From assembly GCA_965552055.1 (NCBI GenBank), contig CBEVQO010000005.1:79597-143596 (forward strand): a stretch of 64,000 bases of DNA. The letters are read 5' to 3'. The notes under the pieces are model-generated. The model saw nothing but the letters and a program-made list of their open reading frames with translations. It was not told the origin of the DNA and did no database searches. The DNA comes from an uncultured bacterium (GTDB lineage: Bacteria; Hydrothermota; UBA3073; NMUJ01; CBEVQO01). Below, in pieces: positions 22,781 to 37,592 of the stretch. Numbering within the stretch: position 1 is the first letter of the stretch; each line of letters begins with the position of its first letter. The position numbers were made by a program, and so were the translations under genes.

Positions 22781-22887
22781 TGCGAGCGTTAGCGAGCTCA
22801 TTTCATATGGGTTTTTTGTCGCACCCGAGCGAAGCGAGGGTTGCGCAAATGGGAAGGTGGGGACTGGGAGGCGGGGCTAAAAATATC
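22781..22887 (-). repeat. GC-rich intergenic repeat, compact inverted copy (R1) of the family also found at 33947 and 45537
   Basis: The reverse complement contains TTAGCCCCGCCTCCCAGTCCCCACC, a CGCAACCCTCGC core, and GCTCGCTAACGCTCGCA. These match the head, core and tail motifs of R2 and R3. Confidence 0.7.
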
Positions 22888-22914
22888 TTGACAAAGTTAT
22901 ATTTTGATTATAAG
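22888..22914 (+). promoter_or_regulatory. Internal promoter-like element TTGACA-N15-TATAAG upstream of the NuoB-like gene
   Basis: Same architecture as the other promoters in the window. It lies between repeat R1 and the ATG at 22922. Confidence 0.45.
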
Positions 22915-22921
22915 AAGAGCC

Positions 22922-23338
22922 ATGGGTATTAAGATTGGTGCTTTAAAGAGGTCTATATGGCTTTTTCATTTTAATTCGGGTTCATGCAATAACTGTGATA
23001 TTGAGATTGTTGACTGTTTAACTCCTCGGTATGACATTGAGAGATTTGGCTTGAAACTTGTAGGTAGCATTCGTCATGCTGATGTTCTTGTAGTAACGGG
23101 TTTTGTCAGCCGTCAGAGTGCTATTCGTTTAAAGAGGTTGTGGGAGATGATGCCAGAGCCTAAGTTTGTTGTAGCAGTTGGTACCTGTGCGTGTTCTGGT
23201 GGTATTTTTGCAGAATCCTATCATATGGCGGGTCCTGTTGATAAGATAATACCTGTTCATGCTTATATACCAGGTTGTCCGCCCAAGCCGGAAGCTATAA
23301 TTTCTGGTATTGTGAAATTGTTGAACACTTTAAAATGA
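22922..23338 (+). CDS. NuoB/MbhJ-like [NiFe]-hydrogenase small subunit (group 4)
   Basis: CNNCDIEI, GTCACSGG and IPGCPP cysteine motifs for the proximal 4Fe-4S cluster. Start set at the ATG (MGIKIG) downstream of the promoter element. The ORF-track start at 22904 lies inside the promoter. Confidence 0.85.
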   Translation: MGIKIGALKRSIWLFHFNSGSCNNCDIEIVDCLTPRYDIERFGLKLVGSIRHADVLVVTGFVSRQSAIRLKRLWEMMPEPKFVVAVGTCACSGGIFAESYHMAGPVDKIIPVHAYIPGCPPKPEAIISGIVKLLNTLK

Positions 23339-23712
23339 GTGAAATCAAAGTTATGGAGGATTTACTGAAAGAGGCAAAGAAATATATTGAAGAGGGTAAT
23401 GTTGTTCAGGCGAGCGAGAAGATTTATAAGGTGATAGAGGAAGGCATTAAGTTTTTATCGAGCAGGGATGGAGTTCCTGAATATTCTGTTGCGCAGAAGG
23501 AAGGCAGGTGGTGGACGCATTTACTTGGTAAGGCAGCTGTTCGACTTTCTAAAAAATATAATGAACAGATGATAAATGATTGCTGGGCAAATGCCTATGA
23601 CCTTCATGTATGGGGTTATCACGAAAGGAAATATGATATGGATACGGTTAAACCTAAATTGAGATATGCAGAGTGGATGCTTGAATTTGTAAAGAAGGTG
23701 TCAAATGAGTGA
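23335..23712 (+). CDS. Small helical protein, family X copy A (tentatively PaREP1/HEPN-like)
   Basis: ~125 aa. EAKKYIEEGNVVQASEKIYKVIEEGIKFL...LHVWGYHER motifs. The start overlaps the NuoB-like stop as ATGA. The longer ORF-track start at 23275 is rejected. Confidence 0.55.
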   Translation: MSEIKVMEDLLKEAKKYIEEGNVVQASEKIYKVIEEGIKFLSSRDGVPEYSVAQKEGRWWTHLLGKAAVRLSKKYNEQMINDCWANAYDLHVWGYHERKYDMDTVKPKLRYAEWMLEFVKKVSNE

Positions 23713-24085
23713 GGAGATAAAAGTTATGGAAGAGTTGCTGAAGGAGGCAAAGAAATATATTGAAGAGGGTAATGTTGTTCAGGCGAGCGAGAAGATTTAT
23801 AAGGTGATAGAGGAAGGCATTAAGTTTTTATCGAGCAGGGATGGAGTTCCTGAATATTCTGTTGCGCAGAAGGAAGGCAGGTGGTGGACGCATTTACTTG
23901 GTAAGGCAGCTGTTCGACTTTCTAAAAAATATAATGAACAGATGATAAATGATTGCTGGGCAAATGCCTATGACCTTCATGTATGGGGTTATCACGAAAG
24001 GAAATATGATATGGATACGGTTAAACCTAAATTGAGATATGCAGAGTGGATGCTTGAATTTGTAAAGAAGGTGTCAAATGAGTGA
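23705..24085 (+). CDS. Small helical protein, family X copy B (identical to copy A at nucleotide level except the first ~25 nt)
   Basis: Tandem duplicate with an 8-nt ATGAGTGA start/stop overlap. Confidence 0.55.
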   Translation: MSEEIKVMEELLKEAKKYIEEGNVVQASEKIYKVIEEGIKFLSSRDGVPEYSVAQKEGRWWTHLLGKAAVRLSKKYNEQMINDCWANAYDLHVWGYHERKYDMDTVKPKLRYAEWMLEFVKKVSNE

Positions 24086-24458
24086 GGAGATAAAAGTTAT
24101 GGAAGAGTTGCTGAAGGAGGCAAAGAAATATATTGAAGAGGGTAATGTTGTTCAGGCGAGTGAGAAGATTTATAAGGTGATAGAAGAAGGCATTAAGTTT
24201 TTATCGAGCAAGGATGGGATACCAGAGTATTCTGTTGCGCAGAGAGAAGGCAGATGGTGGATGCATTTGCTTAGTAAGGCATCTCGTCGTCTTTCTAAAA
24301 AATATAATGAAGATGAAATTTATCATGTGTGGAGTGTTGCGTATGATTTGCATGTATGGGGCTATCATGAAAGGAAACTTGATATAGAAGATGTTAAGCC
24401 AAATATTAAATATGCGGAGTGGATGCTTGAATTTGTGAAGAAGGTGTCAAATGAGTAA
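24078..24458 (+). CDS. Small helical protein, family X copy C (~80% identical to A and B)
   Basis: Third tandem copy, with the same 8-nt overlap into the NuoC-like gene. Confidence 0.55.
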   Translation: MSEEIKVMEELLKEAKKYIEEGNVVQASEKIYKVIEEGIKFLSSKDGIPEYSVAQREGRWWMHLLSKASRRLSKKYNEDEIYHVWSVAYDLHVWGYHERKLDIEDVKPNIKYAEWMLEFVKKVSNE

Positions 24459-24879
24459 GATTGATAAAATAAAAGAAAAGTTTGAGAAAGAGATAAAAAA
24501 GATAAAAAAAGTTGGTGAATTTGAATATTTTATTGATATTGACAGAAGAGATTTGCTTAAAGTGGTTGATTATATTTTTAACGATTTAAAAGGCAGATAC
24601 AATATTTTGTCTGCAACGGATCTGGAAGAGGGTTTTGAGATCCTTTATCATTTTAGTTTTGATGAAGAAGGTAAAAGGGTTACTTTGAGGGTGATGCTGT
24701 CTCATGAAAATCCAGAAGTTGAATCGATAAGTAGTATTGTAAAAGGTGCGCAATGGATAGAGAGGGAGATTATGGATTTACTTCCTATTAAATTTTTGAA
24801 TCATCCTGATCCTCGCAGATTTATCTTATCCGATGATTGGGAAGAGGGGGTATATCCTTTGAGAAGGGAGAAGAGATGA
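24451..24879 (+). CDS. NuoC/MbhK-like hydrogenase subunit
   Basis: EILYHFSF...RVTLRVML and the AQWIEREIMDLLPIKFLNHPDPRRFIL NuoC signature. Confidence 0.8.
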   Translation: MSKIDKIKEKFEKEIKKIKKVGEFEYFIDIDRRDLLKVVDYIFNDLKGRYNILSATDLEEGFEILYHFSFDEEGKRVTLRVMLSHENPEVESISSIVKGAQWIEREIMDLLPIKFLNHPDPRRFILSDDWEEGVYPLRREKR

Positions 24880-26087
24880 AAAGGGTGATACCGATAGGCC
24901 CTTATCATCCATTACAGGAAGAAGCGGAGTTTTTCCAATTATATGTTGAAGGTGAAACGGTAGTTGATGTTGACTGGAAAACAGGTTTTAATCACAGGGG
25001 GATAGAGAAAATTTCACAATCGCTTTCTTATGATCAAGTTGCTTTTCTTGTGGAGAGAGTTTGTGGGATATGTTCCACTTCTCATCCGATTGCCTATTGT
25101 AATGCTGTTGAAGAGATATGTGGTATTGAGATACCTGAGAGAGCAAAGTATATAAGGAGCATAATAGGCGAATTGGAGCGTATACATTCGCATTTATTGT
25201 GGCTGGGGCTCGCAGGTCATTTTATTGGATATGACACACTGTGGATGTGGGCATGGAAATACAGAGAGCCTGTTCTCGACATCATGGAGATGATAACGGG
25301 AAATAGGCAAAATTATGCAATGATGAAGCCAGGGGGCGTTAGGAGAGATATCGATGAAGATAAGATACCTGATATTAAAAAAGTTTTAAATAGTTTGAAA
25401 CCTGTTCTTGAAAAGTTTGCCAAAATTGCAATGGATGATCCTGTTTTGCATGCTCGCACAAAGGGTGTTGGTATATTGACAAAGGAAGAGGCACATAATT
25501 TTGGGGCAGTGGGTCCTACTGCGAGGGCATCTGGCTTAAAAATAGATGTGAGGTGTGATTTTCCTTATGCTGCTTATCCTCTTGTTGAATGGGAAGTTAT
25601 AACAACGGAAAATGGAGATGTTTTTGATAAAATTGTTGTAAGAGTGCTTGAGATGATAGAATCTGTTAAAATAATTGAGCAATGTCTTGATAGGTTGAAA
25701 GAAGCGAAAGGAGAGATTGATGCAAAGATAAAGGAAGTTCCACCTGGTGAAGGTATAGGGACTCATGAAGCTCCAAGGGGTGAGGTTTTTCATTATGTAA
25801 AGTCAGATGGCAGTAATAGACCTGTGAGGCACAAAATAAGGGCACCGAGTTATTGTAATGTTCCGACATTTAAAGTTACATGCGTTGGATATCAGGTTGC
25901 TGATGCGGTTATTGCGCTTGCAGCGGTTGACCCTTGTTACAGCTGTACTGAAAGGATGGAAGCGATAGTTGATGGCAAAAGGATTTTAAAGTGGAGAGAT
26001 TTGATAAGGATGAGCAGGCAGAAGACAGAAAAGATAAAGGCAGAGGTTGGCAGGGATTTTCTTTTGAAAGAAAAACCCGAATTGTGA
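24876..26087 (+). CDS. Group-4 [NiFe]-hydrogenase large subunit (NuoD/HycE/MbhL-like) with intact Ni-Fe ligands
   Basis: N-terminal ERVCGICSTSH (RxCGxC) and C-terminal DPCYSCTER (DPCxxC). After the cleavage-site Arg there is a ~43-aa C-terminal extension. Start at the ATG with a GGGAGAAGAG ribosome-binding site and ATGA overlap with the NuoC-like stop. Confidence 0.9.
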   Translation: MKRVIPIGPYHPLQEEAEFFQLYVEGETVVDVDWKTGFNHRGIEKISQSLSYDQVAFLVERVCGICSTSHPIAYCNAVEEICGIEIPERAKYIRSIIGELERIHSHLLWLGLAGHFIGYDTLWMWAWKYREPVLDIMEMITGNRQNYAMMKPGGVRRDIDEDKIPDIKKVLNSLKPVLEKFAKIAMDDPVLHARTKGVGILTKEEAHNFGAVGPTARASGLKIDVRCDFPYAAYPLVEWEVITTENGDVFDKIVVRVLEMIESVKIIEQCLDRLKEAKGEIDAKIKEVPPGEGIGTHEAPRGEVFHYVKSDGSNRPVRHKIRAPSYCNVPTFKVTCVGYQVADAVIALAAVDPCYSCTERMEAIVDGKRILKWRDLIRMSRQKTEKIKAEVGRDFLLKEKPEL

Positions 26088-26491
26088 TGGATGTAATAAA
26101 AGAAATGGAAGTAAGTTTATATTGTGACGGAAAAAGTAGTAAAAAGATGAGATTATATTTTGATAGTGGCTCACCTTATACTTTTATAAAAAAGTCGAGT
26201 GCAGAAGCGATAGGAGGTATTTTTAAATTACCATCTGAAGAAAGATTCGTTGGACTTGGAGGCGGCGGATTTATAAGTGCGGAAGCACAGCATCTTCATA
26301 TAAAGGTTTCAAATGTATGGTGCGCGCATTTTGTTTATGTGATTGATGATGCTATTTTCAAAGATGAGTATGATATGCTTGTTGGTCATGATTTTATGCA
26401 AAAATATGGTATAAAGGTGGTGCCTCATACAGGTGATATTGAGATAGATGAGGTTAGATTGAAATTATCGCAAACTGTGAGGATGGTATGA
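26087..26491 (+). CDS. Retropepsin-like small aspartic protease, paralog 2 (D-S-G-S variant)
   Basis: YFDSGSPYTFI aligns with the DTGA and DTGS motifs of paralogs 1 and 3. The ATG overlaps the large-subunit TGA by 1 nt (TGATG). Confidence 0.5.
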   Translation: MDVIKEMEVSLYCDGKSSKKMRLYFDSGSPYTFIKKSSAEAIGGIFKLPSEERFVGLGGGGFISAEAQHLHIKVSNVWCAHFVYVIDDAIFKDEYDMLVGHDFMQKYGIKVVPHTGDIEIDEVRLKLSQTVRMV

Positions 26492-28281
26492 CGGATATTC
26501 TTTATCTATTATTAATACCTGCTGGTGCCGGTGTTTTGAGTTTGTTGTTGCCTCGTCGTGCTAAAATTGGTGCAGAAATAATTGGCTTACTTGGTAGTGC
26601 GGGAGCGCTCTTTTATTGTGTGCTTATCTATTTGCGTTATAACTCATTTACCAATGCATGGTGGAGAATCGATGGATTATCCCGTTTTATACTTTTATTC
26701 TGTGGTATTTTTGGATTTATAATAACTCTTTATTCACTTCCTTATATGAGGAAATTTAAAAAGTTAAATGAGTATTATGGCTATCTGTTATTTACAATTG
26801 CAGGTTCATTTGGTGTGGTTCTTGCCAACAATTTGATTTTATTCCTTGCCTTGTGGGGCTTTTTGGGTTTGACTCTTTATCTTCTGGTAAACATAAGTGA
26901 TGAAGGCTCGCCTGCAGCGAAGAAGACGATGATAATTGTAGGAGGTGCAGATTGTTTGATGATATTCGGGATAGTTGTATTAATTTTGATGACTTTTTCT
27001 TTCAGGATGGACCAGATGAATGTAAATGTTTCGGTTTCTCCTTTAGCGGCTCTTGCCTTTGTTGTTCTTGCACTTGCTGCCTTTGCCAAAGCAGGTGTTA
27101 TGCCCATGCATACATGGATGCCTGATTATACGCAATGTGCACCAACATCCGTAGCTGCTTATCTGCCTGCGTCACTTAATAAATTGTTGGGAATATATCT
27201 GCTTATGAGATTGGTTAAAGATATTTTTAAGTTGAATAATGCTATGCAAATATTTTTGCTTGCTATTGGAGCATTCACTATTATAGCTGGTGTAATGATG
27301 GCGTTAATCCAGCATGATGTTAAAAGAGTGCTTTCTTATGATGCAATATCACAGGTTGGATATATGGTGCTGGGGATAGGGACATTGAATTCCATAGGTT
27401 TTAGCGGAGGTTTATTCCATATGTTAAATAGTGCGATATTTACAGGATGTTTATTTCTTACTGCAGGGAGTGTTGAACACAGGTCAGGCACAACCGACCT
27501 TGATAAACTTGGAGGATTGTCTCGCTATATGCCTGTTACTTTTATTGCATTTATAATATCAGCGCTGGCGATATCAGGAGTGCCGCCACTTAATGGCTTT
27601 TTCAGTAAATGGATGATTTATCAGGGGATAATTAAGCTTGGTGAAAAGAGTAAACTTTGGATTTTGTGGATTGCGTGTGCGATGTTTGGTAGTGCGTTGA
27701 CCCTTGCAAGTTTTATGAAGCTTTTGCATGCAATTTTCCTCGGACAAAAAGCCGATTATAAGAAAGAAATAAAAGAGGTGAATTTTGCAATGTTGCTACC
27801 GCAAATGTTCCTTGCTGCTTTATGCTTTGTATTTGGTATATGGGCATTTAATGTTCCACTGAGTAAATTGATTTATCCTGCTGTTGGAAGTGTGCCTCAT
27901 TTTGTAGGCTGGTGGGAGCCCTGTCTTGCTACGATTTTGATAATCGTGGGAATATTAATAGGTGCTATAATTTATGTTGCTGGAAAAGTGAAGGTCAGGG
28001 AAGAGGAGCATCCATTTATCGGTGGAGAGATTTTACCAGAAGAAGCAAGGATTACGGGTGTAGATTTTTATAAGACAGTAGAAGAGATGTGCGTTATAAG
28101 GACTTTTTACGGCTTGGCAAAGAAAAAATTGTTCGATATTTATGAATTGTGCAAAAGAATGTTTCTCTATCTTGGAAGTAAGATTTCGAAGTTGCATACT
28201 GGTGTTTTGACATCTTATATTGGCTGGATATTCTTTGGTTTTATCATAATTTTATTCGTGGTTTGGATGCTTAAATGGTAG
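26488..28281 (+). CDS. MrpA/NuoL-like antiporter-type membrane subunit (proton-conducting membrane transporter family)
   Basis: 597 aa with ~16 TM helices. The WMPDYTQCAPTSVAAYLPASLNKLLGIYLLMRL core is typical of the NuoL/MrpA/MrpD family. Confidence 0.8.
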   Translation: MTDILYLLLIPAGAGVLSLLLPRRAKIGAEIIGLLGSAGALFYCVLIYLRYNSFTNAWWRIDGLSRFILLFCGIFGFIITLYSLPYMRKFKKLNEYYGYLLFTIAGSFGVVLANNLILFLALWGFLGLTLYLLVNISDEGSPAAKKTMIIVGGADCLMIFGIVVLILMTFSFRMDQMNVNVSVSPLAALAFVVLALAAFAKAGVMPMHTWMPDYTQCAPTSVAAYLPASLNKLLGIYLLMRLVKDIFKLNNAMQIFLLAIGAFTIIAGVMMALIQHDVKRVLSYDAISQVGYMVLGIGTLNSIGFSGGLFHMLNSAIFTGCLFLTAGSVEHRSGTTDLDKLGGLSRYMPVTFIAFIISALAISGVPPLNGFFSKWMIYQGIIKLGEKSKLWILWIACAMFGSALTLASFMKLLHAIFLGQKADYKKEIKEVNFAMLLPQMFLAALCFVFGIWAFNVPLSKLIYPAVGSVPHFVGWWEPCLATILIIVGILIGAIIYVAGKVKVREEEHPFIGGEILPEEARITGVDFYKTVEEMCVIRTFYGLAKKKLFDIYELCKRMFLYLGSKISKLHTGVLTSYIGWIFFGFIIILFVVWMLKW

Positions 28282-28823
28282 ACCTTTATATCATAATTGG
28301 GATTATGATTTTAAGTGCCATAATTGCTCTTGAAGTACGGGACCTTATTTCTTCGATTATATGTGCTGGTGTGTGTGGTTTTGCACTTGTTTTTGTGTTT
28401 CTGCGTTTACATGCACCTGACCTTGCGGTCGTTCAAATGATTGTGGAAACTCTATCTTTAATAATTTTAATAGCAGCAATTTTGAGGACTACAAGAGAAG
28501 ATGTTCAGGAAGGGATTTCATTTAACAAAGTAATTTTGTATCTTGGAGGACTATTTTTTGTGATAATATTTATGATATTTGCATATAATGTTATAAATGA
28601 TATGGCGAAGTTTGGAGAGCCATATTTGAGAATGTCTTATCCTTATATTGAGCAAGGTGTTAGAAGTTTATTCAATGGTGGTCCAAAAGTTGCGAATATT
28701 GTGGGAGCTGTTCTGCTTGATTTCAGGGGATATGATGCACTTGGATGTGCTACAGTGCTGTTTGCCTCTGCGATAGGTGTTCTTGTAGTTTTGAGGAAAA
28801 TAGGTAGAAAAAAGGATGTTTAA
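28275..28823 (+). CDS. MbhD/MrpA-C-terminal-like (DUF4040-type) small membrane subunit
   Basis: 182 aa with 4-5 TM helices, located in the Mrp module. Confidence 0.55.
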   Translation: MVDLYIIIGIMILSAIIALEVRDLISSIICAGVCGFALVFVFLRLHAPDLAVVQMIVETLSLIILIAAILRTTREDVQEGISFNKVILYLGGLFFVIIFMIFAYNVINDMAKFGEPYLRMSYPYIEQGVRSLFNGGPKVANIVGAVLLDFRGYDALGCATVLFASAIGVLVVLRKIGRKKDV

Positions 28824-29217
28824 ATTTGATAAATATTTAAAGGAAGCAAAGAGATATATTGAAAAAGGGGATGCGGTGCAGGCAAGCGAGAAACTTTATA
28901 AGTGTGGTAAAGAAGCGATAAAATTGCTAGCTGAAACTTTTGATATTGAAGAAAATAAAGAAGCAAAAGAGATGGGAAGATGGTATACGCCTTTACTTGG
29001 AAATGCTGCGATTAGATTGAGTAAAATTGTGGATAGCAGGATATTTGCTTTTTGGAAGACAGTTTATTATTTGCATTGTGAAGGGTTTCATGAGCGTCAT
29101 CTTGATGTTGAAAATGTAAGAGAAAATCTTAAAGATATTGAAGAATTGGTTGAAATAGCGAAGAAATATAAAAATGAAAGAGGGATAAATGAAGGAAGGG
29201 ATGAGTTTGATAGTTAA
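28816..29217 (+). CDS. Small helical protein, family X copy D (~35% identical to A-C)
   Basis: AKRYIEKGDAVQASEKLYKCGKEAIKLL...LHCEGFHERHLD. The same 8-nt overlap style (ATGTTTAA) with the upstream gene. Confidence 0.5.
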   Translation: MFKFDKYLKEAKRYIEKGDAVQASEKLYKCGKEAIKLLAETFDIEENKEAKEMGRWYTPLLGNAAIRLSKIVDSRIFAFWKTVYYLHCEGFHERHLDVENVRENLKDIEELVEIAKKYKNERGINEGRDEFDS

Positions 29218-29626
29218 AACAGTTGCAAGGATTTTAAGCTGGGTAATAGCACTTTATGGTGCTTACATTGTGGCGCATGGTCATCTTACACCTGGTGGTG
29301 GTTTTGCAGGGGGTGCTATAATTGCCTGTGCTTTTATTCTGCTGTTCCTCGCTTACGGGTCCGAGGTGAAAGAAAGCCGGGTTAAGCTTTTACAGGCGTT
29401 ATTTGCAGGAAGCCTTGGAGTATTCTTCTTCTGGCTGATTGCACTACTTGGATTATGTTTCGGAACATACTTCTTCTCAAACTTATTTGCTAAGGGTAAA
29501 GCATTTTGTCTTTTTAGTGGTGGGATAATTCCTGTTTGTAATGCTACGATAGGTTTTGGAGTGGCAGGTGCTTTGTGTATGATATTCATAGGTTTTGCTG
29601 CAATTAAATTATTGGAAGGAAAATGA
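29189..29626 (+). CDS. MrpB/MnhB-like membrane subunit
   Basis: HGHLTPGGGFAGGAI signature of MnhB-family subunits. Confidence 0.75.
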   Translation: MKEGMSLIVKTVARILSWVIALYGAYIVAHGHLTPGGGFAGGAIIACAFILLFLAYGSEVKESRVKLLQALFAGSLGVFFFWLIALLGLCFGTYFFSNLFAKGKAFCLFSGGIIPVCNATIGFGVAGALCMIFIGFAAIKLLEGK

Positions 29627-29973
29627 TTTATTATTTGCTTGGAATATTGCTTTTTGCGATAGGGCTGTATGGAGTGCTTACAAAGAGGAATCTATTTAAA
29701 ATAATAATTGGCTTGCTGATAATAGAATATGCTGTATTTTTGATGTTTGCACTTGTGGGATACAGAGAAGGAGGCATTGCTCCTGTTTTTGTGAAAGGCT
29801 TATCAGCAGGAGATGCGATACAAAAAATGGTTGACCCTATTCCTCAATCACTGGCTCTAACTGTGATGATTATTGGATTGGGTGCTATTGCATTGATATG
29901 TGCACTTGCCGTAAGGATTTATGAAAAATATGGTACACTCGATGTCAGGAAAATTAAGAAATTAAAAGGATGA
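29623..29973 (+). CDS. MrpC/NuoK-like membrane subunit
   Basis: 116 aa with three TM helices. YLLGILLFAIGLYGVLTKRNLFKIIIGLLIIEYAV is typical of NuoK/MrpC. Confidence 0.8.
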   Translation: MIYYLLGILLFAIGLYGVLTKRNLFKIIIGLLIIEYAVFLMFALVGYREGGIAPVFVKGLSAGDAIQKMVDPIPQSLALTVMIIGLGAIALICALAVRIYEKYGTLDVRKIKKLKG

Positions 29974-30332
29974 TGGGCATGGTGGAAGTTAAAATTAAAA
30001 TGATAAATCCCCAGAATGGTAAAAAAATGTGTGAGTTAAACTTTGTAGCAGATACAGGTTCGATTTACAGTGTGGTATCTGTTGAGGAACTTTCAAAGAT
30101 AGGGATAACTCCTCGGTATGAGCGTGAGTTTAAAACTATTGACGGTAAAAAGATTCGTCGCAAAGTTGGCATTGCAATATTTAAATACAAAGAATATGAA
30201 GGAGGAGCTCCTGTGATTTTTGGTGAAAAAGAAGATATGAATGTGCTTGGTGTTACTGCACTCGAAGCAATGGGACTGGAAGTTGACCCTGTAAATAAAG
30301 AATTAAAACCTGTAGAATTATTGTTGCTATGA
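29970..30332 (+). CDS. Retropepsin-like small aspartic protease, paralog 3
   Basis: FVADTGSIYSVV (D-T-G-S). 120 aa. The ATG overlaps the upstream stop as ATGA, and the downstream start overlaps this gene's stop as ATGA. Confidence 0.55.
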   Translation: MMGMVEVKIKMINPQNGKKMCELNFVADTGSIYSVVSVEELSKIGITPRYEREFKTIDGKKIRRKVGIAIFKYKEYEGGAPVIFGEKEDMNVLGVTALEAMGLEVDPVNKELKPVELLLL

Positions 30333-31813
30333 TGGAGTGGAGCATTCCAATATTTGTTGCTATACCTTTATTCTTTGCGTTTATTTTACCGATTGCAGGT
30401 AGGAAGTCAGAGAGGGTGGGTGATGTGCTTGCAAATATAGGGACACTTACTACATTAATATTCGCTATACTGAATGTTAAATTTATGAAAGAAACATCGG
30501 TATATTATGTCGGAGGATGGAAGTTGCCCATGGGAATCTATCTTGTGCGTGATGCACTTACAATATTTATGCTCATTACGGTAAATCTTGTTGCGTTTAT
30601 GTCAACTTTATTCTCAATAAATTATATGCAGAAATTTACAGATAAAACAAAATATTATGCATTATTTATGTTGATGCTTGCTGGTATGAATGGTGTGATA
30701 ATTACAGGTGACTTTTTCAACCTTTATGTTTTCCTTGAGATAGCTGCGATTGCATCTTATGCACTTGTAGCGTATGGGATAGAATCAGAAGAGTTAGAAT
30801 CTGCATTCAAATATCAGGTGATGGGAAGTGTCGGTTCTGCATTTATTCTTCTGGCAATAATTCTGATTTATTCTCATACAGGTACATTGAATATGGCTGA
30901 TGTAGGTAAAGTTCTTAAAGAAAAAGGTTTATCAAATCTTTTAATTTTTACAAGTGTTTTATTTATCGTTGGCTTTGGTATAAAGGCTGGTGTTATTCCT
31001 TTCCATGCGTGGTTGCCCGATGCACATCCATCTGCACCTGCACCAATATCCGCAATGCTATCAGGAGCTGCGATAAAAGTAATGGGAATCTATCCATTAA
31101 TCAGAATAATTTATAATGTAATAGGGTTTAATGAATTGTTCTCCAACATTTTGATGATTCTTGCTGTCATTTCAATAATAATCGGTGATTTACTTGCACT
31201 GTTGCAATGGGATTATAAGCGTTTGCTTGCATATTCGAGTATAAGCCACATCGGATTCATATTGCTTGCTGTGGGATTGGGTACGCCTCTTGGAATTCTT
31301 GCAGGATTATTCCATTTATTTAATCATTCTGTTATTAAAGCGTTGTTATTCCTGAATTCTGGTAGTATTGTTTATTCTGCTGGTACTAGGGATTTAAAAG
31401 AGATGGGAGGATTAGATAAAGATATGCCTGTGACAAGTAAAACAAATCTAATAGGTTCTATGTCTATTGCAGGTATTCCGCCATTTAATGGATTCTGGTC
31501 GAAGTTGCTGATTATAGTGGCGTGTATTACAGCGGGTAAAGCGGGCTATGCATGGTGGGCGATAGCAGGTAGTATAATCACACTCGCTGTGTTTGCCAAA
31601 GCATACAAATATGTATTCTGTGGTGAAAGTAAGAAAAAAGTTAAAGAATCACCTGCATGGATGTGTATAGCGATGATAATACTGGCAATAATTTGTGTTG
31701 CAGGAGGATTGTTGCTCTTACCAGAAGTAAAAGTCGCTTTCTTAAATCCAGTAGTGGAAGTGATTAGAGGAGGTTTACAGTATATCGATAGGGTGCTGGG
31801 AGGATTGCAATGA
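30329..31813 (+). CDS. MrpD/NuoN-like antiporter-type membrane subunit
   Basis: HAWLPDAHPSAPAPISAMLSGAAIKVMGIYPLIRI core and ~14 TM helices. Confidence 0.85.
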   Translation: MMEWSIPIFVAIPLFFAFILPIAGRKSERVGDVLANIGTLTTLIFAILNVKFMKETSVYYVGGWKLPMGIYLVRDALTIFMLITVNLVAFMSTLFSINYMQKFTDKTKYYALFMLMLAGMNGVIITGDFFNLYVFLEIAAIASYALVAYGIESEELESAFKYQVMGSVGSAFILLAIILIYSHTGTLNMADVGKVLKEKGLSNLLIFTSVLFIVGFGIKAGVIPFHAWLPDAHPSAPAPISAMLSGAAIKVMGIYPLIRIIYNVIGFNELFSNILMILAVISIIIGDLLALLQWDYKRLLAYSSISHIGFILLAVGLGTPLGILAGLFHLFNHSVIKALLFLNSGSIVYSAGTRDLKEMGGLDKDMPVTSKTNLIGSMSIAGIPPFNGFWSKLLIIVACITAGKAGYAWWAIAGSIITLAVFAKAYKYVFCGESKKKVKESPAWMCIAMIILAIICVAGGLLLLPEVKVAFLNPVVEVIRGGLQYIDRVLGGLQ

Positions 31814-32295
31814 GGTATATCGTTTTGTTCATCTTTGCTTATGTAATGTGGATTCTGCTGACCTGTGCCGTTGACTGGCAGCATTTACTTACAGGCGCAC
31901 TTGTATCTTTACTTATCACAATAATTTTTGGCAAAAGTGCATTCGCCGGTAAGGTTAAATTCTTTGATTTAAGAAGATGGTTCTGGTTTATAGTTTACAT
32001 CTTTGTATTTTTATGGGAATGTATAAAGGCAAATATTGATGTTGCGTACAGGGTTATTCATCCTCTTATGCCGATAAAACCTGGAATTGTGAAAGTTAAA
32101 ACAAATTTGAAGTCGGACATTGCGAAAACATGGCTGGCAAATTCAATAACAATGACACCGGGAACATTATCTGTGGATATAGATGGGGAATACCTTTATG
32201 TCCACTGGATGTATGTGAGGGATGAAAGTTTGGAAGGTGCTACAGAAAAAATAGTCGGTAGATTTGAAAAGTTACTTATGAGAATATTTGAATAG
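31810..32295 (+). CDS. MrpE-like subunit
   Basis: 161 aa with two N-terminal TM helices plus a soluble tail, in the MrpE position of the Mrp gene order. Confidence 0.65.
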   Translation: MRYIVLFIFAYVMWILLTCAVDWQHLLTGALVSLLITIIFGKSAFAGKVKFFDLRRWFWFIVYIFVFLWECIKANIDVAYRVIHPLMPIKPGIVKVKTNLKSDIAKTWLANSITMTPGTLSVDIDGEYLYVHWMYVRDESLEGATEKIVGRFEKLLMRIFE

Positions 32296-32303
32296 GAGCA
32301 GTT

Positions 32304-32558
32304 ATGATGCCACTAATTTTAATATTGATAGGAATAATGGTGCTGTGCCTGATAAGAGTATGGTCTGGTCCCACTATTGCCGATAGGCTTGTTGCAGTTA
32401 ATATGTTTGGGATAATTATGGCAGGAATTACAGGGTTGCTTTCGATTCTTTTCTATCGGGAATTCCTTATAGATATTGCTCTTGCATGTATTTTTTTGCT
32501 TTTCATAGGCACAATAGCGTTTGCGAAATATCTGGAAAAGAGGAGGTTTGATGATTGA
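32304..32558 (+). CDS. MrpF-like subunit
   Basis: 84 aa. IRVWSGPTIADRLVAVNMFGIIMAG is the MrpF/PhaF signature. Confidence 0.75.
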   Translation: MMPLILILIGIMVLCLIRVWSGPTIADRLVAVNMFGIIMAGITGLLSILFYREFLIDIALACIFLLFIGTIAFAKYLEKRRFDD

Positions 32559-32892
32559 GAAAATAGGTTTTGTAATAATATGCATTGGAATTGCTTTTAA
32601 CTTCTTCGGGATACTTGGGTTATTGCGTTTACCCGATGTTTACAATAGATTACAGGCATCTACAAAATGTGTAGCTCTTGGCACATGCGGGATAATGTTT
32701 GGTGTATTTTTGATGGCACTGGCGAAAGGAATGATAAGTTTGGGTATAAAAGCACTTGTTGCAATACCTTTAATTTTCATTACATTAGCTACCGGTTCAC
32801 ATGCACTCGCAAGGGGAGCACATAAATTTGGCATAAAGCTATGGGAAAAGAGCATCTGCGATAAATATAAAGAAGATAAGGGGGATAAATGA
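32551..32892 (+). CDS. MrpG/MnhG-like subunit
   Basis: GILGLLRLPDVYNRLQASTKCVALG is the MnhG signature. Start at the ATG with an AGGAGG ribosome-binding site. Confidence 0.75.
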   Translation: MIEKIGFVIICIGIAFNFFGILGLLRLPDVYNRLQASTKCVALGTCGIMFGVFLMALAKGMISLGIKALVAIPLIFITLATGSHALARGAHKFGIKLWEKSICDKYKEDKGDK

Positions 32893-33509
32893 AATTGCCG
32901 AAAATTAGAGAATTGGGAGAAGCTTTGAAAGCAATTTTTACAGGTCCCTATACTCTTAAATTCCCGGCAGGTCCGCCAGCAGAAACCACCAAATACTACA
33001 GGGGAAAGCCTGTGCCAGACGACGATTATTGCGTGGGATGCACTGCATGCGCATCAGTGTGTCCTTCAAAAGCAATAGAAGTGGAAGATGACCCGAAAAA
33101 GGGAATAAGAAAAATAATAAGAAGATACGATAAATGCATATACTGTGGGCAATGTGAAAGATATTGTCTCACAGAAAAAGGTGTTCACCTGACACAGGAA
33201 TGGGATTTAGCGGGATTCAAGCGCGATGAGATGCGATATGTCCAGGAAAAAGAATTAGTAGTTTGTGATAGATGCGGAGAAGTGATAAGCACAAAGCAAC
33301 ATCTTTTATGGCTTGCACATAAACTTGGAGAAATGGCTTACGGAAATTATCCTTTGATTTTGGTATCCTATGATAAATTACAAATTGTAAAACCTGTTCG
33401 CGAAAAAATAGAAAAAGAAAAACCAGTAACAAGGCAGGACTTTTTCAGAATCTTATGCCCCAAATGTAAACACATAGTCATCCTTTACGATAAATACGCG
33501 ATAAGGTGA
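32889..33509 (+). CDS. NuoI/MbhN-like 2x[4Fe-4S] hydrogenase subunit
   Basis: CVGCTACASVCP and CIYCGQCERYC motifs. Confidence 0.85.
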   Translation: MKLPKIRELGEALKAIFTGPYTLKFPAGPPAETTKYYRGKPVPDDDYCVGCTACASVCPSKAIEVEDDPKKGIRKIIRRYDKCIYCGQCERYCLTEKGVHLTQEWDLAGFKRDEMRYVQEKELVVCDRCGEVISTKQHLLWLAHKLGEMAYGNYPLILVSYDKLQIVKPVREKIEKEKPVTRQDFFRILCPKCKHIVILYDKYAIR

Positions 33510-33946
33510 AAATAGTAGTTTGTGGTGTAGGTAACAGATTGAGGGGCGATGACGCAATAGGTTTACTTATAATAGAAGAACTCAAAAAAGAAAATTTGAA
33601 CGCAATACTTATAAATGCAGGAAGTGCACCTGAAAATTATCTTCAAAAAATAATAAATCATAATCCGGATATTTTGCTAATCATAGATGCTGTGGACTTC
33701 AAAGGCATACCTGGTCAGACAAAAATTGTTAATGTAGAAGAATTGGAAGATAAGTTTTTTTCAACACATTCCCTTTCTTTAAAATTTCTGACACAATACT
33801 TAAAACAATTTTTACCTGATTTGAAAATTTTGCTGATAGGCATTCAGCCAAAAGATACAAATTTAAGAGAAGGAATAACAAAAGAATTAAAAGAAAAATT
33901 ACCACAAATTAAAAAAGAAATTATCAAAATGCTAAAAAATTATTAG
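33506..33946 (+). CDS. Hydrogenase maturation endopeptidase (HycI/HybD family)
   Basis: KIVVCGVGNRLRGDDAIGLLI is the GxGNxxxxDDGxG nickel-dependent C-terminal processing protease signature. Confidence 0.85.
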   Translation: MKIVVCGVGNRLRGDDAIGLLIIEELKKENLNAILINAGSAPENYLQKIINHNPDILLIIDAVDFKGIPGQTKIVNVEELEDKFFSTHSLSLKFLTQYLKQFLPDLKILLIGIQPKDTNLREGITKELKEKLPQIKKEIIKMLKNY

Positions 33947-34246
33947 CCCCACCTCCCAGTCCCCGCCTTCCCATGTGCACACCCCTCGCAAGGCACAGCC
34001 TTGACAACACCATAGCTCTATAAACGCCCTTCCCGTAAAACCCGACCCATACGCCCCAAAATCACAAAGTACCTTGCTCGGGGTGTGACAAAATACCCAT
34101 TGGTGATAGGCTCGCTTACGCTCGCATTAAAAATTTTTTGATATGCACCCTCGCTAACAAAATGTGATTCATCTTCCACTGCTCGGGTGTGACAAATATT
34201 CTTATGTGAAACACGCTCCGCCCGTAATAAAAACCCAAATCCCCAC
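33947..34246 (+). repeat. GC-rich intergenic repeat R2 (head-core-tail motifs with internal sub-repeats)
   Basis: Starts TTAGCCCCACCTCCCAGTCCCCGCC...TGCACACCCCTCGC. It contains two copies of GCTCGGGGTGTGAC and of CCCGTAA(A/T)AA, plus the tail CTCGCTTACGCTCGCATTAAAAATTTT shared with R3. GC content is far above the flanking DNA. Confidence 0.7.
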
Positions 34247-34273
34247 TTGACAAAATTAGATTTTTATTATAAT
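34247..34273 (+). promoter_or_regulatory. Promoter-like TTGACA-N15-TATAAT followed by an AGGAGG ribosome-binding site
   Basis: TTGACA at 34247-34252 and TATAAT at 34268-34273. Upstream of the 34325 gene. Confidence 0.5.
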
Positions 34274-34324
34274 ATTAGATATGTCTAACAATGTTTGGGA
34301 TATAGAATTAAAAAGGAGGGTGGG

Positions 34325-35314
34325 ATGAGGTGTGTGTTTGTTGTGGTTGTGGGAGGCGGTCTTTTCTTTTCGTCCATTGAGGCTGTATTTGCTGAGCCGA
34401 CCGTAGGGTGTCCTCACGATGTGGGCAAAGGTAAATTCAAAGTTCGCAATAGAACAGCGTATATTCGGGCATCGAAATGCTACTCTGACGAAGTATGGAA
34501 GGCGCTTCGCGATAGTTCACAGTACTCAAAAGATTATGACAAAATGGTGGGTTTGCCAGAGGGCTGGCATATGAAGAAGAACAAAATTGCAATAGGATTG
34601 GAGTATGGGATTATTGATAGGCTAAGTGTGGGAATCTTCCTTCCTTATGTGGTGAAAGATTTAAAGAGACAGGTCTGGTCGAAGCAGGCTAATAAAACTG
34701 TATGGAAGGAGGTTAAGGATAGTGGACTTGAGGATTTCTGGCTATCGGTCAAATATCTGGTATATTCAAAATCCAAAGGATTACTGGGCTTTAACTGGGA
34801 GGATGGGCTTTTTGTTGCCCTCAGCTATAAGCCTTCTGTTAGTTCTGATGAGAAGATTAAAAATGGTATAGGAAGCGGAGCAAATGAGTTTAAATTTGTG
34901 GTTCTCTCTCATCCTCATTTTACCGAGAACTTCTTCCTGTGTAGCGATGTATGGTATCAATACAGAGGAAAGGTCAAAGAGATAGATGGCTTTTCGAAGT
35001 CTGGCTGGGAACTTGGAGATAGATTTGGGTATCGTTTCTTTTTTGGATATGAGTTTAAAAAATTCGCCATAGTTGGTGGTCCACAGGGTTGGCTTGCCCA
35101 AAGTAATAAAGATAAAGACGGAAAAGAAATTGAAGATAGTAATATGTATTCCCACGGAATAGTGGTAAAATTGCGATACCAACCATTTGGGGATGAAGAG
35201 GCAGGCTCCATAGACCTTGGTATAAGAATACCTTATGCAAATAAAACCGCTTTTGCTCCTGATTTTATGCCGGTTATCTGTGGAAGAATGAAATTTGGCA
35301 AATTTAATTTTTAA
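34325..35314 (+). CDS. Hypothetical outer-membrane beta-barrel-like protein
   Basis: Signal peptide. Alternating hydrophobic strands. A C-terminal ...RMKFGKFNF ending in Phe is typical of OMP beta-barrels. Start at the ATG after the AGGAGG ribosome-binding site. Confidence 0.45.
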   Translation: MRCVFVVVVGGGLFFSSIEAVFAEPTVGCPHDVGKGKFKVRNRTAYIRASKCYSDEVWKALRDSSQYSKDYDKMVGLPEGWHMKKNKIAIGLEYGIIDRLSVGIFLPYVVKDLKRQVWSKQANKTVWKEVKDSGLEDFWLSVKYLVYSKSKGLLGFNWEDGLFVALSYKPSVSSDEKIKNGIGSGANEFKFVVLSHPHFTENFFLCSDVWYQYRGKVKEIDGFSKSGWELGDRFGYRFFFGYEFKKFAIVGGPQGWLAQSNKDKDGKEIEDSNMYSHGIVVKLRYQPFGDEEAGSIDLGIRIPYANKTAFAPDFMPVICGRMKFGKFNF

Positions 35315-35346
35315 TTGACTTTTTGAATTTAAAATTATAATTATCT

Positions 35347-35823
35347 GTGAAGAAGAATTTAACTGCGAGTCTGGAAGATTATTTAGAAGCAATATTTATT
35401 ATTTCTCAAAGCCATAAAGTAGTGCGTGTTAAGGATTTGGTGAAACATTTAAAAGTAGCAGGTGCATCTGTTGAAAATGCTTTAAAAATTCTAAAAGAAA
35501 AAGGATTGATTAATCATGAAAAATACGGTTACATAGAGCTAACGGAAAAAGGTGAAAAGGAGGCACAAAAAATCTATGAGCGTCATAAAGTGCTTCAAAG
35601 ATTTTTTTCGCAGATTTTAGGTTTGGATGAATCAACAGCACAAAAGGATGCCTGTGCAATCGAGCATTACATAAGTGAGGAAGGATTAGAAAGATTAATC
35701 AAATTTTTGAAATTTATAGAAGAATGTCCACAAGGAACTCCAAACTGGCTGAAAAGTTTACACTACTATTTTAAGACAGGAAAAAGACCGGAAGAATGTC
35801 CAAAAAGGAAATCCGCCGATTAA
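35347..35823 (+). CDS. DtxR/MntR-family metal-dependent transcriptional repressor
   Basis: N-terminal LEDYLEAIFIISQSHKVVRVKDLVKHLKVAGASVENALKILKEKGLI winged-helix region, then a dimerisation region ERHKVLQRFF. GTG start. Confidence 0.8.
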   Translation: MKKNLTASLEDYLEAIFIISQSHKVVRVKDLVKHLKVAGASVENALKILKEKGLINHEKYGYIELTEKGEKEAQKIYERHKVLQRFFSQILGLDESTAQKDACAIEHYISEEGLERLIKFLKFIEECPQGTPNWLKSLHYYFKTGKRPEECPKRKSAD

Positions 35824-35829
35824 TTAAAT

Positions 35830-36063
35830 TTATTCAAAGACTGCTTTTACTTCCTTTACTTCTGGGATTTCGTCTTTTATTCTCTTTTCGATAAAGCCTT
35901 TAAGTGTCATCTGAGCAAATGGGCATCCAGCGCATCTGCCTTTGAGACGCACAGTAACCACGCCTTCATCCGTTATTTCAACCAGTTCTACATCGCCTCC
36001 ATCTATCGCAAGATATGGCTTTATTTTATCAACAACATTCTGTACCCTTTCTCTATCAATCAT
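35830..36063 (-). CDS. NifU-like (Nfu-type) Fe-S cluster assembly domain protein
   Basis: LAIDGGDVELVEI...GRCAGCPFAQMTLKGFIEKRI matches the NifU C-terminal domain CxxC signature. Start at the ATG with an AGGAGG ribosome-binding site. Confidence 0.8.
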   Translation of the reverse strand: MIDRERVQNVVDKIKPYLAIDGGDVELVEITDEGVVTVRLKGRCAGCPFAQMTLKGFIEKRIKDEIPEVKEVKAVFE

Positions 36064-36490
36064 CTTTCCTCCTGTTAAAAAGTTTAGAAAAAGTGTCAAT
36101 TATTCTTTTTGCATGTTTAAAGCCTTCTTTTATCATCTCAACTCCAACTCCTCCCCTGTAATATCCCAAGATATGCAAATTTTCATGAACAACTCTTAAA
36201 GATGCCTGCAATTTGCCATTGTGGGGTGCTTTCTTAAGCCATTCCCAGTATTCATCATAAGAAGTAGGTAGCTTATCTTCCGGACAGCCTTTTGATAGGG
36301 CAAATGCATCGATTGCAAGTAATGCAGAGAGATAACCTATAGCACATGCCTCTTTTACAGGTTTCTCATCCGTATAAATCCCATATTTTATTTCAACATT
36401 TTTCAAAATCTCTTTTGCATTGTTGAAATAGCGATGCGACATCTCAATCGCCTCTTCAGCACTCGTTGGACGCTTAAATGCCTTCATCAT
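36056..36490 (-). CDS. Small helical protein, family X copy E (divergent subfamily; shares the LHxxGY(H/Y) core with A-D)
   Basis: 144 aa. KEACAIGYLSALLAIDAFAL...NLHILGYYRGG. Overlaps the NifU-like start by 8 nt. Confidence 0.5.
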   Translation of the reverse strand: MMKAFKRPTSAEEAIEMSHRYFNNAKEILKNVEIKYGIYTDEKPVKEACAIGYLSALLAIDAFALSKGCPEDKLPTSYDEYWEWLKKAPHNGKLQASLRVVHENLHILGYYRGGVGVEMIKEGFKHAKRIIDTFSKLFNRRKDD

Positions 36491-36936
36491 GGATTATAAT
36501 CTTCACGCTTCTTTTTTCTATCAAAAAGTTTGGAAAAAGTGTCGATTATTCTTTTTGCATGTTTAAAACCTTCTTTTATCATTTCAACTCCAACTCCTCC
36601 CCTGTAGTATCCAAAAATATGCAGATTTTCGTAAACAACTCTTAGAGATGCCTGCAATTTACCATTGTGGGGTGCTTTCTTAAGCCATTTCCAGTATTCA
36701 TCATAAGAAGTGGGTAGTTTGTCTTCCGGACAGCCTTTTGATAGGGCAAATGCGTCAATTGCGAGTAATGCAGAGAGATAACCTATAGCACATGCTTCTT
36801 TTACAGGTTTCTCATCCGTATAAATCCCATATTTTATTTCAACATTTTTCAAAATCTCTTTTGCATTGTTAAAATAGCGATGCGACATTTCAATCGCTTC
36901 TTTGGCGCTCGTTGGACGCTTAAATGCTTTCATCAC
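36487..36936 (-). CDS. Small helical protein, family X copy F (~96% identical to E)
   Basis: Tandem duplicate of E. Its stop overlaps the E start as ATGA. Confidence 0.5.
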   Translation of the reverse strand: MMKAFKRPTSAKEAIEMSHRYFNNAKEILKNVEIKYGIYTDEKPVKEACAIGYLSALLAIDAFALSKGCPEDKLPTSYDEYWKWLKKAPHNGKLQASLRVVYENLHIFGYYRGGVGVEMIKEGFKHAKRIIDTFSKLFDRKKKREDYNP

Positions 36937-36976: not shown

Positions 36977-37555
36977 TTAAAATTTTATAACAGCAAGATG
37001 TCTGCCTGTTTTGCCTTTATCTCTTCTGTAAGAGAAAAATTTATCCGGATGCTCATAGGTGCACAATCCGGGATTGAAAACTTTAACGCCTATCCTTTTA
37101 AGCTTTTCCTCAATTCCTCCCCACAAATCAATGTCATAACAGTTAGGACAGATAGAGGGGCTTATCAGAGCAAATTCAGGTGCTGGCACTAATTTCAGCA
37201 TAGATTCAATGATGCCAGATTCAAAGCCACGCCTACCAATATGTAAAATGCCGATATACTCGGGATGATAAAGAAAAAGAGCAACACAATCTGCAACATA
37301 CACTCCAAGTGTTAAATCTTTTTTGAAAGTTATTAAACCATCGCCTTCTAAATCTTCTTTCTTATCCACAATTCTCACAATGTTGCTATGAATCTGCTTT
37401 AAAGTGATGAGATTTTCTTCACTTATGCCTATTTCTTTAAAATATCTTTTTCTATTTTCTTTCACATTTTCGGGTAAATCCCCAACATTAAAAGATAAAT
37501 TTAAACTTTCAAAATTTCCTTCGCTAACCCCTCCCATCCTTGTCGGAAAATACAT
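36977..37555 (-). CDS. YfiH/PgeF (DUF152, Cu-oxidase_4) family purine-nucleoside phosphorylase/laccase-domain protein
   Basis: MGGVSEGNFESLNLSFNVGD...HSNIV N-terminal signature and a conserved C-terminal Cys/His region. Confidence 0.7.
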   Translation of the reverse strand: MYFPTRMGGVSEGNFESLNLSFNVGDLPENVKENRKRYFKEIGISEENLITLKQIHSNIVRIVDKKEDLEGDGLITFKKDLTLGVYVADCVALFLYHPEYIGILHIGRRGFESGIIESMLKLVPAPEFALISPSICPNCYDIDLWGGIEEKLKRIGVKVFNPGLCTYEHPDKFFSYRRDKGKTGRHLAVIKF

Positions 37556-37592
37556 TTTTACATTTTTGTAAGAGAAGTAAAAAAGTAATAAT

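Follow-up and report, generated by a model that had tools for sequence, protein, structure and literature searches.

PaREP1 (with PaREP8; Pfam PF05942) is a family of small proteins of the HEPN-T clade, solved structurally from Sulfolobus solfataricus (2q00/2jpu), and is among the largest uncharacterised gene expansions of thermophilic Crenarchaeota. It is expanded in Thermoproteales, where fusions with an RHH domain are frequent, and is without linkage to MNT genes (PMC2701414, PMC3632139); in Pyrobaculum oguniense it marks strain-specific regions, 6 of the 16 largest among them (PMC3558965). PaREP1 has been regarded as a possible orphan toxin with its partner unidentified (PMC3632139). Anantharaman et al. 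noted that the family does not carry the R of the Rx4-6H motif and that other conserved basic residues might substitute for it (PMC3710099). The published analyses leave open whether PaREP1 is a toxin with a partner. Here we analysed a 64,000-nucleotide stretch of DNA (the window; contig CBEVQO010000005.1) from an uncultured bacterium of the Hydrothermota, in which four PaREP1 genes and three retropepsin-like protease genes occupy five stop-start junctions of a hydrogenase operon, and two genes of another HEPN-fold family, DUF5618, are coupled to a NifU-domain gene. The best reading, to which we assign a probability of about 0.5, is that the seven genes in the hydrogenase operon are conflict-type small-gene cassettes lodged in its junctions.

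Free-standing homing endonuclease genes and "morons" are small genes inserted between conserved phage genes. The inserts described here resemble them in junction placement, in presence or absence between close relatives and in histories decoupled from those of the flanks, but have no known type of homing nuclease, no phage context and no promoter or terminator of their own. The HEPN-MNT (HepT-MntA) type II/VII toxin-antitoxin (TA) systems share the fold of the six HEPN-type genes, whose fold matches include structures of HepT and of HEPN toxins, and HEPN/MNT pairs are among the commonest neighbours of PaREP1 elsewhere. Unlike those systems, none of the six has an MNT partner; their neighbours are hydrogenase/Mrp subunits, another copy, a YfiH-like gene or NifU. 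They also do not carry Rx4-6H, and the inserts are not autonomous two-gene cassettes with their own promoter region. Regulators of the MtlR type are non-catalytic HEPN proteins encoded within the operon thought to be their target (PMC3710099). The likeness to MtlR considered here is one of context. From species to species, MtlR is conserved together with its operon, whereas the PaREP1 inserts are absent from orthologous operons.

The four PaREP1 copies (A-D) share the invariant residues and the 2q00 fold of their family, and like other members they form tandem repeats and have no R of the Rx4-6H motif (PMC3710099). They differ in their bacterial host, in their short form, which does not have the RHH-like extension that Thermoproteales members carry at the N terminus (PMC2701414), and in being embedded in an operon with start/stop overlaps, whereas the others are oriented nearly at random. 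DUF5618 (PF18498) is represented structurally by 3mfn (Dfer_2879 of Dyadobacter fermentans). Copies E and F match its hidden Markov model (HMM) and the 3mfn fold, but are tandem-duplicated and NifU-coupled, a context not seen in the sampled relatives. We found no paper that mentions DUF5618 and no function described for the family. The three protease genes are single-domain open reading frames (ORFs) of ~120-135 aa with a D[TS]G motif, as in clan AA retropepsin-like proteases (TIGR03698 'clan_AA_DTGF'; PF13975/PF13650). No source was found that describes such proteases within a hydrogenase operon or as recurrent neighbours of PaREP1. The PaREP1, DUF5618 and clan AA families are known; the embedding of PaREP1 in operon junctions of a bacterium appears to be undescribed.

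Inserts at the junctions of the hydrogenase operon

The host operon combines a group-4 [NiFe] hydrogenase with Mrp-type antiporter modules and ends with the gene for the HycI protease. Its core order is Fer4_22, FAD/NAD, Fer4, NuoH, NuoB, NuoC, NuoD, MrpD, MbhD, MnhB, MnhC, MrpD, MnhE, MrpF, MnhG, NuoI, HycI. The operon, its inserts and the genes of the DUF5618 locus are as follows.

19165-33946, + strand: group-4 membrane-bound [NiFe] hydrogenase operon, Mbh/Mrp type (from Pfam tables, including that of the near-identical contig L002)
21011-21424 (likely start ATG 21017), + strand: retropepsin-like protease A (retroA), DTGA motif, between the FAD/NAD-binding and 4Fe-4S genes
23335-23712, + strand: PaREP1 copy A, 125 aa, PF05942 E = 2.5e-29, first unit of the array, between the NuoB-like and NuoC-like genes
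23705-24085, + strand: PaREP1 copy B, 126 aa, PF05942 E = 3.2e-29, 8-nt overlaps on both sides
24078-24458, + strand: PaREP1 copy C, 126 aa, PF05942 E = 5.4e-31, 8-nt overlap with the NuoC start
26087-26491, + strand: retropepsin-like protease B (retroB), DSGS motif, between the hydrogenase large-subunit and MrpD-like genes
28816-29217, + strand: PaREP1 copy D, 133 aa, PF05942 E = 2.8e-28, between the MbhD-like and MnhB-like genes
29970-30332, + strand: retropepsin-like protease C (retroC), DTGS motif, between the MnhC-like and second MrpD-like genes
35830-36063 (likely start ATG at 36063), - strand: NifU-domain (Nfu-type) gene downstream of E, PF01106 E = 6.6e-27
36056-36490, - strand: DUF5618 copy E, 144 aa, PF18498 E = 5.5e-25, translationally coupled to the NifU-domain gene downstream
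36487-36936, - strand: DUF5618 copy F, 149 aa, PF18498 E = 5.2e-26, tandem duplicate of E

Four orthologous operons with identical core gene order were available for comparison (L082/L083, L173/L174, L084 and L085/L086), with large-subunit identities of 79, 77, 71 and 69%, respectively. None of the four held PaREP1 or retropepsin genes at the five junctions (the retroA junction, for example, was empty in L082, L174 and L085, and that of retroB likewise in relatives), and filled and empty junctions could be aligned base for base. The seven inserts (four PaREP1 and three retropepsin-like genes) are therefore lineage-specific additions at five stop-start junctions and not conserved subunits. Three close contigs, L001, L002 and L089, were near-identical to the window (98.4-99.4% nt), and a fourth, L127, was diverged (85% nt). 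The large subunit had thousands of homologs, and the named ones were all bacterial (Latescibacteria, Omnitrophica, Elusimicrobiota, Mcinerneyibacterium). GTDB representative genomes did not include the source species (best match 49%). Contigs L032 and L125 are one Guaymas Basin scaffold under two deposit names, which identifies the Ga0180301 sample series, also the source of L127 and L173, as hydrothermal sediment.

Each of the seven inserts overlaps the gene on either side, by 1-29 nt, in forms that include ATGA, ATGAGTGA and TGATG. The start of copy A forms an ATGA overlap with the NuoB stop codon, and copies A, B and C make up a head-to-tail tandem array with a unit spacing of 373 nt (repeat family D1 in the repeat scan). 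Because the overlaps leave no spacer and no promoter region of their own, the inserts are necessarily translated within the polycistron. The sole sizeable non-coding gap in the 15-kb operon lies between the NuoH-like and NuoB-like genes (22781-22903, 123 nt) and could hold an internal regulatory element; the other junctions of the operon are overlapping or at most 8 nt apart.

At the DUF5618 locus, an ATGA overlap couples F to E, and the stop codon of E overlaps the start of the NifU-domain gene by 8 nt. The pair sits downstream of an N4/N6 DNA methylase gene, near which no restriction enzyme was seen and which overlaps a YfiH/PgeF-like (Cu-oxidase_4) gene (36977-38309, - strand). Beyond the NifU-domain gene lies a convergent gene for a DtxR-type iron-dependent repressor on the opposite strand (35347-35823).

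Two HEPN-fold families and a clan AA protease

An initial annotation of the window, made from the letters alone, had described copies A-F as a single family of six small helical proteins that it tentatively likened to PaREP1 and HEPN. All six ORFs were present where, and on the strands on which, it had placed them, with lengths of 125-149 aa, and both proteins that were modelled (C and E) were all-helical. It had also correctly placed D between the MbhD-like and MnhB-like genes and recognised E and F as near-identical (95% of protein residues, 135/142), ATGA-coupled and joined to a NifU-domain gene. The single family did not survive. A-D matched PF05942 with 98.5-107.3 bits, against a cut-off of 24.4 (gathering score), and E and F gave no match to that model; E and F matched PF18498 with 88.4 and 91.7 bits, against a cut-off of 33 (gathering score). 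Protein identity between A-D and E/F was 19-23%. The PaREP1 assignment thus held for A-D, which belong to the HEPN superfamily, and failed for E and F, which are DUF5618 and share the fold only.

The N-terminal motif that had been reported for A-D, EAKxYIExGxxVQASEKxYK, was present and nearly invariant across the family. In an alignment of 25 PaREP1 sequences, the QASEK and LHxxG[FY]HE segments were invariant, and A-D all carried the family-invariant QASEK, GRW, W85 and LHxxG[FY]HE. Residues R59, H92, H97 and E98 were invariant as well; beyond H92 and H97, the alignment contained no family-wide Cys/His cluster-binding motif. The distal core LHxxG[YF][HY] was found in all six proteins, as LHVWGYHE in A-C, LHCEGFHE in D and LHILGYYR or LHIFGYYR in E/F. 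The canonical Rx4-6H HEPN RNase motif was absent from A-D and from E and F. A-D begin at the HEPN core, whereas archaeal PaREP1 homologs have ~40 extra N-terminal residues.

Profile and structure comparisons placed both groups in one fold. A profile of PaREP1 homologs matched the solved Sulfolobus protein 2jpu/2q00 with E = 7.7e-29, and E matched 3mfn by sequence with E = 5e-11. AlphaFold2 models of C and E had predicted local distance difference test values (pLDDT) of 97.5 and 91.5. In a fold search, the model of C best matched 2q00 (template modelling (TM) score 0.81-0.87, root-mean-square deviation 1.8-2.3), followed by the canonical HEPN structures 2hsb, 1o3u, 1ufb and 1wol, and also matched the DUF5618 structure 3mfn (TM 0.71). 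The model of E matched 3mfn (TM 0.75-0.88), followed by 1ufb and 2hsb, and matched the PaREP1 structure 2q00 with TM 0.64/0.75 and a probability of 1.00. Both models matched 2hsb, 1o3u, 1ufb, 1wol, the sacsin HEPN domain and HepT at TM 0.55-0.74 with high probability, so that both families qualify as four-helix up-down bundles of the HEPN type.

Alignment of the PaREP1 and DUF5618 profiles with hhalign gave a probability of 74.5% (E = 2.7e-5), over only the last 47 C-terminal columns and exactly at the LHxxG core. Taken with the Pfam split and the fold matches across families, this means that the six genes do not form one family but fall into two, PaREP1 with four genes and DUF5618 with two, of one superfamily, HEPN; the homology proposed between the two groups stands at the level of superfamily and fold. 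DUF5618, judging from the model of E, has a HEPN fold close to those of PaREP1, 2hsb and 1ufb, an assignment that appears not to have been described before.

The three retropepsin-like (clan AA) aspartic protease ORFs interleaved in the operon had been overlooked in the initial annotation. RetroA scored 39.1 bits against PF13975, above the gathering score, and E = 8.8e-15 against TIGR03698. RetroB had a single match above cut-off (PF12384, 23.4 bits) and aligned with retroA and retroC. RetroC fell below every curated cut-off (TIGR03698 E = 5.3e-11, under cut-off) and aligned with the other two. In the candidate-defence comparison with PADLOC, the window retropepsins weakly matched PDC-M08B (E = 5.7e-6 to 1.6e-4; retroB 5.7e-6) and PEPT_D (E = 4.7e-3), and also weakly matched the model of a type III-associated aspartyl protease of Sulfolobales. 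A literature search found nothing on PDC-M08.

Selection, turnover and origin of the inserts

The ratio of nonsynonymous to synonymous substitution rates (dN/dS) was uninformative between the window and L002 for most genes, which are nearly identical, and the diverged contig L127 was used instead. The ratio was 0.14-0.27 among the array paralogs and 0.17 for D between the window and L127. As judged from these values, the inserts are functional genes under purifying selection. It is accordingly hard to regard them as functionless passengers, that is, decaying remnants retained since precise deletion from overlapped junctions is rare. Seamless overlaps would make imprecise loss harmful to essential neighbours, and the tail of D is a frameshift extension, both as such decay would have it; but the low ratios, the intactness of all seven ORFs and the retention of family-invariant residues and protease D[TS]G motifs make this explanation very improbable. 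The extension of D comprises its last ~10 codons (…INEGRDEFDS; 29150-29217) and arose from a 2-nt indel relative to L127, whose version terminates with KNEKGG and a stop codon immediately before the MnhB start. Because of the extension, D overlaps MnhB by 29 nt in the window.

Copy number differed between close relatives. Flanking genes of L002 and the window were separated by synonymous distances (dS) of 0.01-0.07, yet L002 had two array copies versus three, and its second copy differed from C with a dS of 0.48. By this comparison, the copies and alleles of the array turn over within one species. D showed a history of a different kind. Between the window and L127 it was 93.7% identical in nucleotides, versus 78-84% in the flanks (Fisher p = 1e-9), with a dS of 0.19 versus 0.53-0.88. 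The tract of high identity covered ~28,820-29,320 and reached ~100 nt into MnhB. Since synonymous distance is lower in D than in its flanks, the result points to a more recent common ancestry of the insert, via transfer or conversion after the two lineages split, and not to stronger protein constraint.

Within the operon, protein identity was 99% between A and B (97.6% nt), 82% between A and C, and 47% for both A/D and C/D. Outside homologs were closer than the more distant of these paralogs: C was 54% identical to homolog P0003, D was closest to archaeal P0005 (54%), and retroC was 40% identical to a gene of a Thermofilaceae contig (L057) versus 23% to retroA. These identities, closer to Thermoproteota genes than to operon paralogs, indicate that the inserts were acquired independently, with local duplication only for A, B and C. 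A foreign base composition of the inserts was considered and rejected, as their GC content and third-position GC (GC3) equal those of the operon.

The boundaries of two inserts carry short repeats. One octamer, which is also the empty NuoB/NuoC junction in L173, flanks the A-B-C array.

23333-23340, + strand: AAATGAGT, left copy, NuoB stop overlapping the insert start
24449-24456, + strand: AAATGAGT, right copy, PaREP1-C stop overlapping the NuoC start

The heptamer ATGATGG is found at both ends of retroC. We do not claim either repeat as a target-site duplication, because a null distribution from other gene starts gave P = 0.025 for AAATGAGT (the probability of at least 5 nt beyond ATG) and 0.069 for ATGATGG.

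PaREP1 neighbourhoods and the reading of the inserts

Relatives of PaREP1 numbered 289 in the genome scan and at least 525 in the metagenome scan; the named ones were nearly all Thermoproteota, with a few Anaerolineae and Dehalococcoides. Neighbourhoods were analysed for a set of 153 independent PaREP1 loci. They were heterogeneous and included CRISPR and TA islands, and the orientation of PaREP1 relative to its neighbours was near random (153 same strand, 133 opposite). The Pfam census of 150 immediate neighbours at 97 loci returned 157 families, led by other PaREP1 genes, MNT nucleotidyltransferases, canonical HEPN proteins, winged helix-turn-helix regulators and, in small numbers, aspartyl proteases; the 25 families listed included none of the hydrogenase, Mrp or NifU type. 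One Thermoprotei archaeon contig (L055, B15_G16, QMRC01000002.1) had five PaREP1-like ORFs in 20 kb, and the 323 kb Guaymas scaffold to which it belongs held three separate PaREP1 loci (L026, L032, L055).

For the six genes as one helical family, the initial annotation had suggested that they help metallocluster enzymes ([NiFe] hydrogenase, NifU/Fe-S) to assemble or to remain stable, or serve as accessory subunits, as opposed to being a selfish element. Within the window, all six are indeed translationally coupled in [NiFe] hydrogenase or NifU-domain operons. This embedding is confined to one lineage, however: the only other embedded PaREP1 genes were those of L002, L089 and L127, which belong to the lineage of the window itself. 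Hydrogenase/Mrp genes lay within 10 kb at 1 of the 153 loci (L080), 3 kb off and with PaREP1 not embedded, and NifU lay within that distance at none. A bias towards metallo-enzyme neighbours, on which the proposal had been made to depend, was thus absent from a family that is widespread, mostly crenarchaeal and multi-copy.

Relatives of E and F (55-68% identity) gave a similar picture. Three distinct contexts were sampled, none of them with linkage to NifU or Fe-S assembly. In L169/L170, DUF5618 is upstream of a TPR-protein gene with a 4-nt overlap, and in four contigs it is wedged between CobT-like (DBI_PRT) and CoaX (type III pantothenate kinase) genes, with gaps of 16 and 30 nt in L087/L088 and wider ones in L171/L172. 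DUF5618 is hence an independent HEPN-fold family that is likewise wedged against unrelated genes at other loci. With two different families involved, with the inserts absent from orthologous hydrogenase operons, and with a fold that is directed at nucleic acids and has no conserved cluster-binding motif beyond H92 and H97, we regard the metallocluster role as contradicted by the data and highly unlikely.

Retropepsin-like genes were, on the other hand, associated with PaREP1 at other loci. Adjacency was tested by profile search, with the density of such genes within each locus as the control. By the sensitive profile, such a gene was present at 24 of the 153 loci, with a density of 5.3 per 100 kb within 1 kb of PaREP1 vs 0.86 beyond 2.5 kb (Poisson P = 1.7e-8). 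Under strict thresholds the enrichment was 6.8-fold (P = 1.1e-6) and 6.2-fold (P = 6e-5). This test superseded an earlier, weak one based on phmmer, in which 6 of 13 loci had a retropepsin within 500 bp (null mean 2.4, P = 0.011). The D[TS]G[AS] motif was kept in most retropepsins near PaREP1, and many of the pairs shared a strand, with 47-255 bp between the two genes. No paper was found that links HEPN or PaREP1 with aspartyl proteases, and the statistically supported adjacency appears to be undescribed.

Two loci illustrate the association. In a Thermofilaceae metagenome-assembled genome (L057, JAVYWK010000028.1, 1700-15900), five to six retropepsin-like and three PaREP1 genes occur in ~14 kb, and the two families appear co-expanded in one island. 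In L003 (JGI 3300045871, Ga0496376_000101; 1500-15000), a short-form PaREP1 gene has an aspartyl protease gene 470-490 bp downstream, and the pair has a type I CRISPR-Cas cluster with Cas3 and Cas7/DevR on one side and a number of HepT-MNT and PIN modules on the other. The latter region is a typical defence/TA island.

The reading of the inserts as conflict-type cassettes would combine these observations as follows. The PaREP1 and retropepsin genes would derive from a multi-copy flexible-genome pool typical of thermophilic Crenarchaeota, where both recur as neighbours. One thermophilic bacterial lineage would have acquired both families repeatedly, and they would have lodged in the junctions of the Mbh/Mrp operon as passengers whose expression follows from translational coupling. 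In the overlapped junctions of an important operon, the genes would be assured of expression and costly to delete. The two proteins may form a conflict-type or stress-type module, in which PaREP1, as a HEPN dimer, would bind or cleave RNA at a non-canonical site (R59, H92, H97, E98) and the retropepsin, as a dimeric aspartic protease, would control PaREP1 or act with it; the fold, the conserved residues and the neighbourhood all suggest such roles.

A bolder form of the proposal, which we put forward tentatively and hold to be rather doubtful, is that PaREP1 HEPN proteins and small retropepsins constitute an unrecognised two-component conflict module, with the protease as the partner of the "orphan" PaREP1, and that promoterless coupled cassettes colonise the overlap junctions of essential operons and spread by recombination. 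Spread between lineages by recombination would explain an insert more conserved than its flanks. If this is true, colonising junctions in this manner would be a lifestyle new to the selfish or defence genes of prokaryotes. The retropepsin adjacency offers in any case a concrete candidate partner for PaREP1, and the bacterial case, in which members of both families were taken up repeatedly and coupled translationally to one respiratory operon, shows that such genes can reside inside essential operons and not only in defence islands.

Several observations weigh against conflict-type cassettes. The canonical HEPN RNase motif is missing, and RNase activity of PaREP1 is putative. A retropepsin is nearby at only ~7-16% of PaREP1 loci. 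The decoupled history of D depends on one 1.3 kb metagenome contig, L127. The boundary repeats are only marginally non-random at two junctions, and neither flanking terminal inverted repeats nor a transposase was found at the inserts. No relatives of PaREP1 or DUF5618 occurred in IMG/VR viral contigs, PaREP1 was absent from the plasmids of PLSDB, and the HEPN-fold proteins had no match in PHROG and none in PADLOC at E <= 0.1. The host-matched composition argues that the inserts are not recent arrivals. All five insertion sites fall within a single operon, with none in the remaining ~50 kb of the window, a concentration with P ~0.003-0.008 if same-strand junctions are equally likely, and no PaREP1 paralog from this organism was found outside the operon among the database matches.

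Nothing argues more strongly for an operon-linked role than this concentration of sites, which suits such a role no less well than a selfish one; alternatively, it may reflect a preference for the dense overlapped junctions of this operon. The inserts could thus be domesticated accessory factors or regulators of the hydrogenase of this lineage, recruited from the archaeal pool. In one version, RNA-binding HEPN proteins would adjust how the ~15 kb polycistronic mRNA is translated or processed, as has been proposed for the inactive HEPN protein MtlR; in another, a chaperone and a protease would act on subunits at high temperature. Five independent acquisitions in a single operon, seamless translational coupling, purifying selection, fully host-matched composition and the precedent of a non-catalytic HEPN regulator embedded in its operon (PMC3710099) all agree with domestication. 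So do the retention of D in a relative 15% diverged in DNA (L127) and the lack of other copies, both in the 64-kb window (HMM scan of all ORFs of at least 30 aa) and among same-assembly database matches.

Other results do not sit well with domestication. Four orthologous operons of otherwise equal composition have no inserts, and copy number and alleles differ between near-identical strains, which is unexpected for a stoichiometric subunit. The history of insert D is decoupled from its flanks, and the contexts of the family as a whole are unrelated to hydrogenases. We therefore consider domestication the main rival reading, to be taken seriously although on the unlikely side. If the inserts do function for the hydrogenase, they would exemplify how proteins of conflict systems were recently recruited to an energy-conserving complex.

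Other features of the window were noted. Upstream of the operon lies a second cluster (12202-19115), which L002 also has. Its products are 4Fe-4S proteins, a Complex1_49kDa/NiFe-hydrogenase-like protein that is short at 322 aa, and a protein of 1003 aa whose matches, Ig-like or transglutaminase-C, were no more than faint. Scanned against Rfam, the window yielded no RNA genes. GC skew was persistently positive over 1-64000, with the cumulative skew climbing nearly throughout, and genes were mostly on the + strand, consistent with one replichore whose genes are co-oriented. Unrelated to the inserts, archease and endonuclease V genes adjoin at 55635-56691 (overlapping as listed) in a long co-oriented block.

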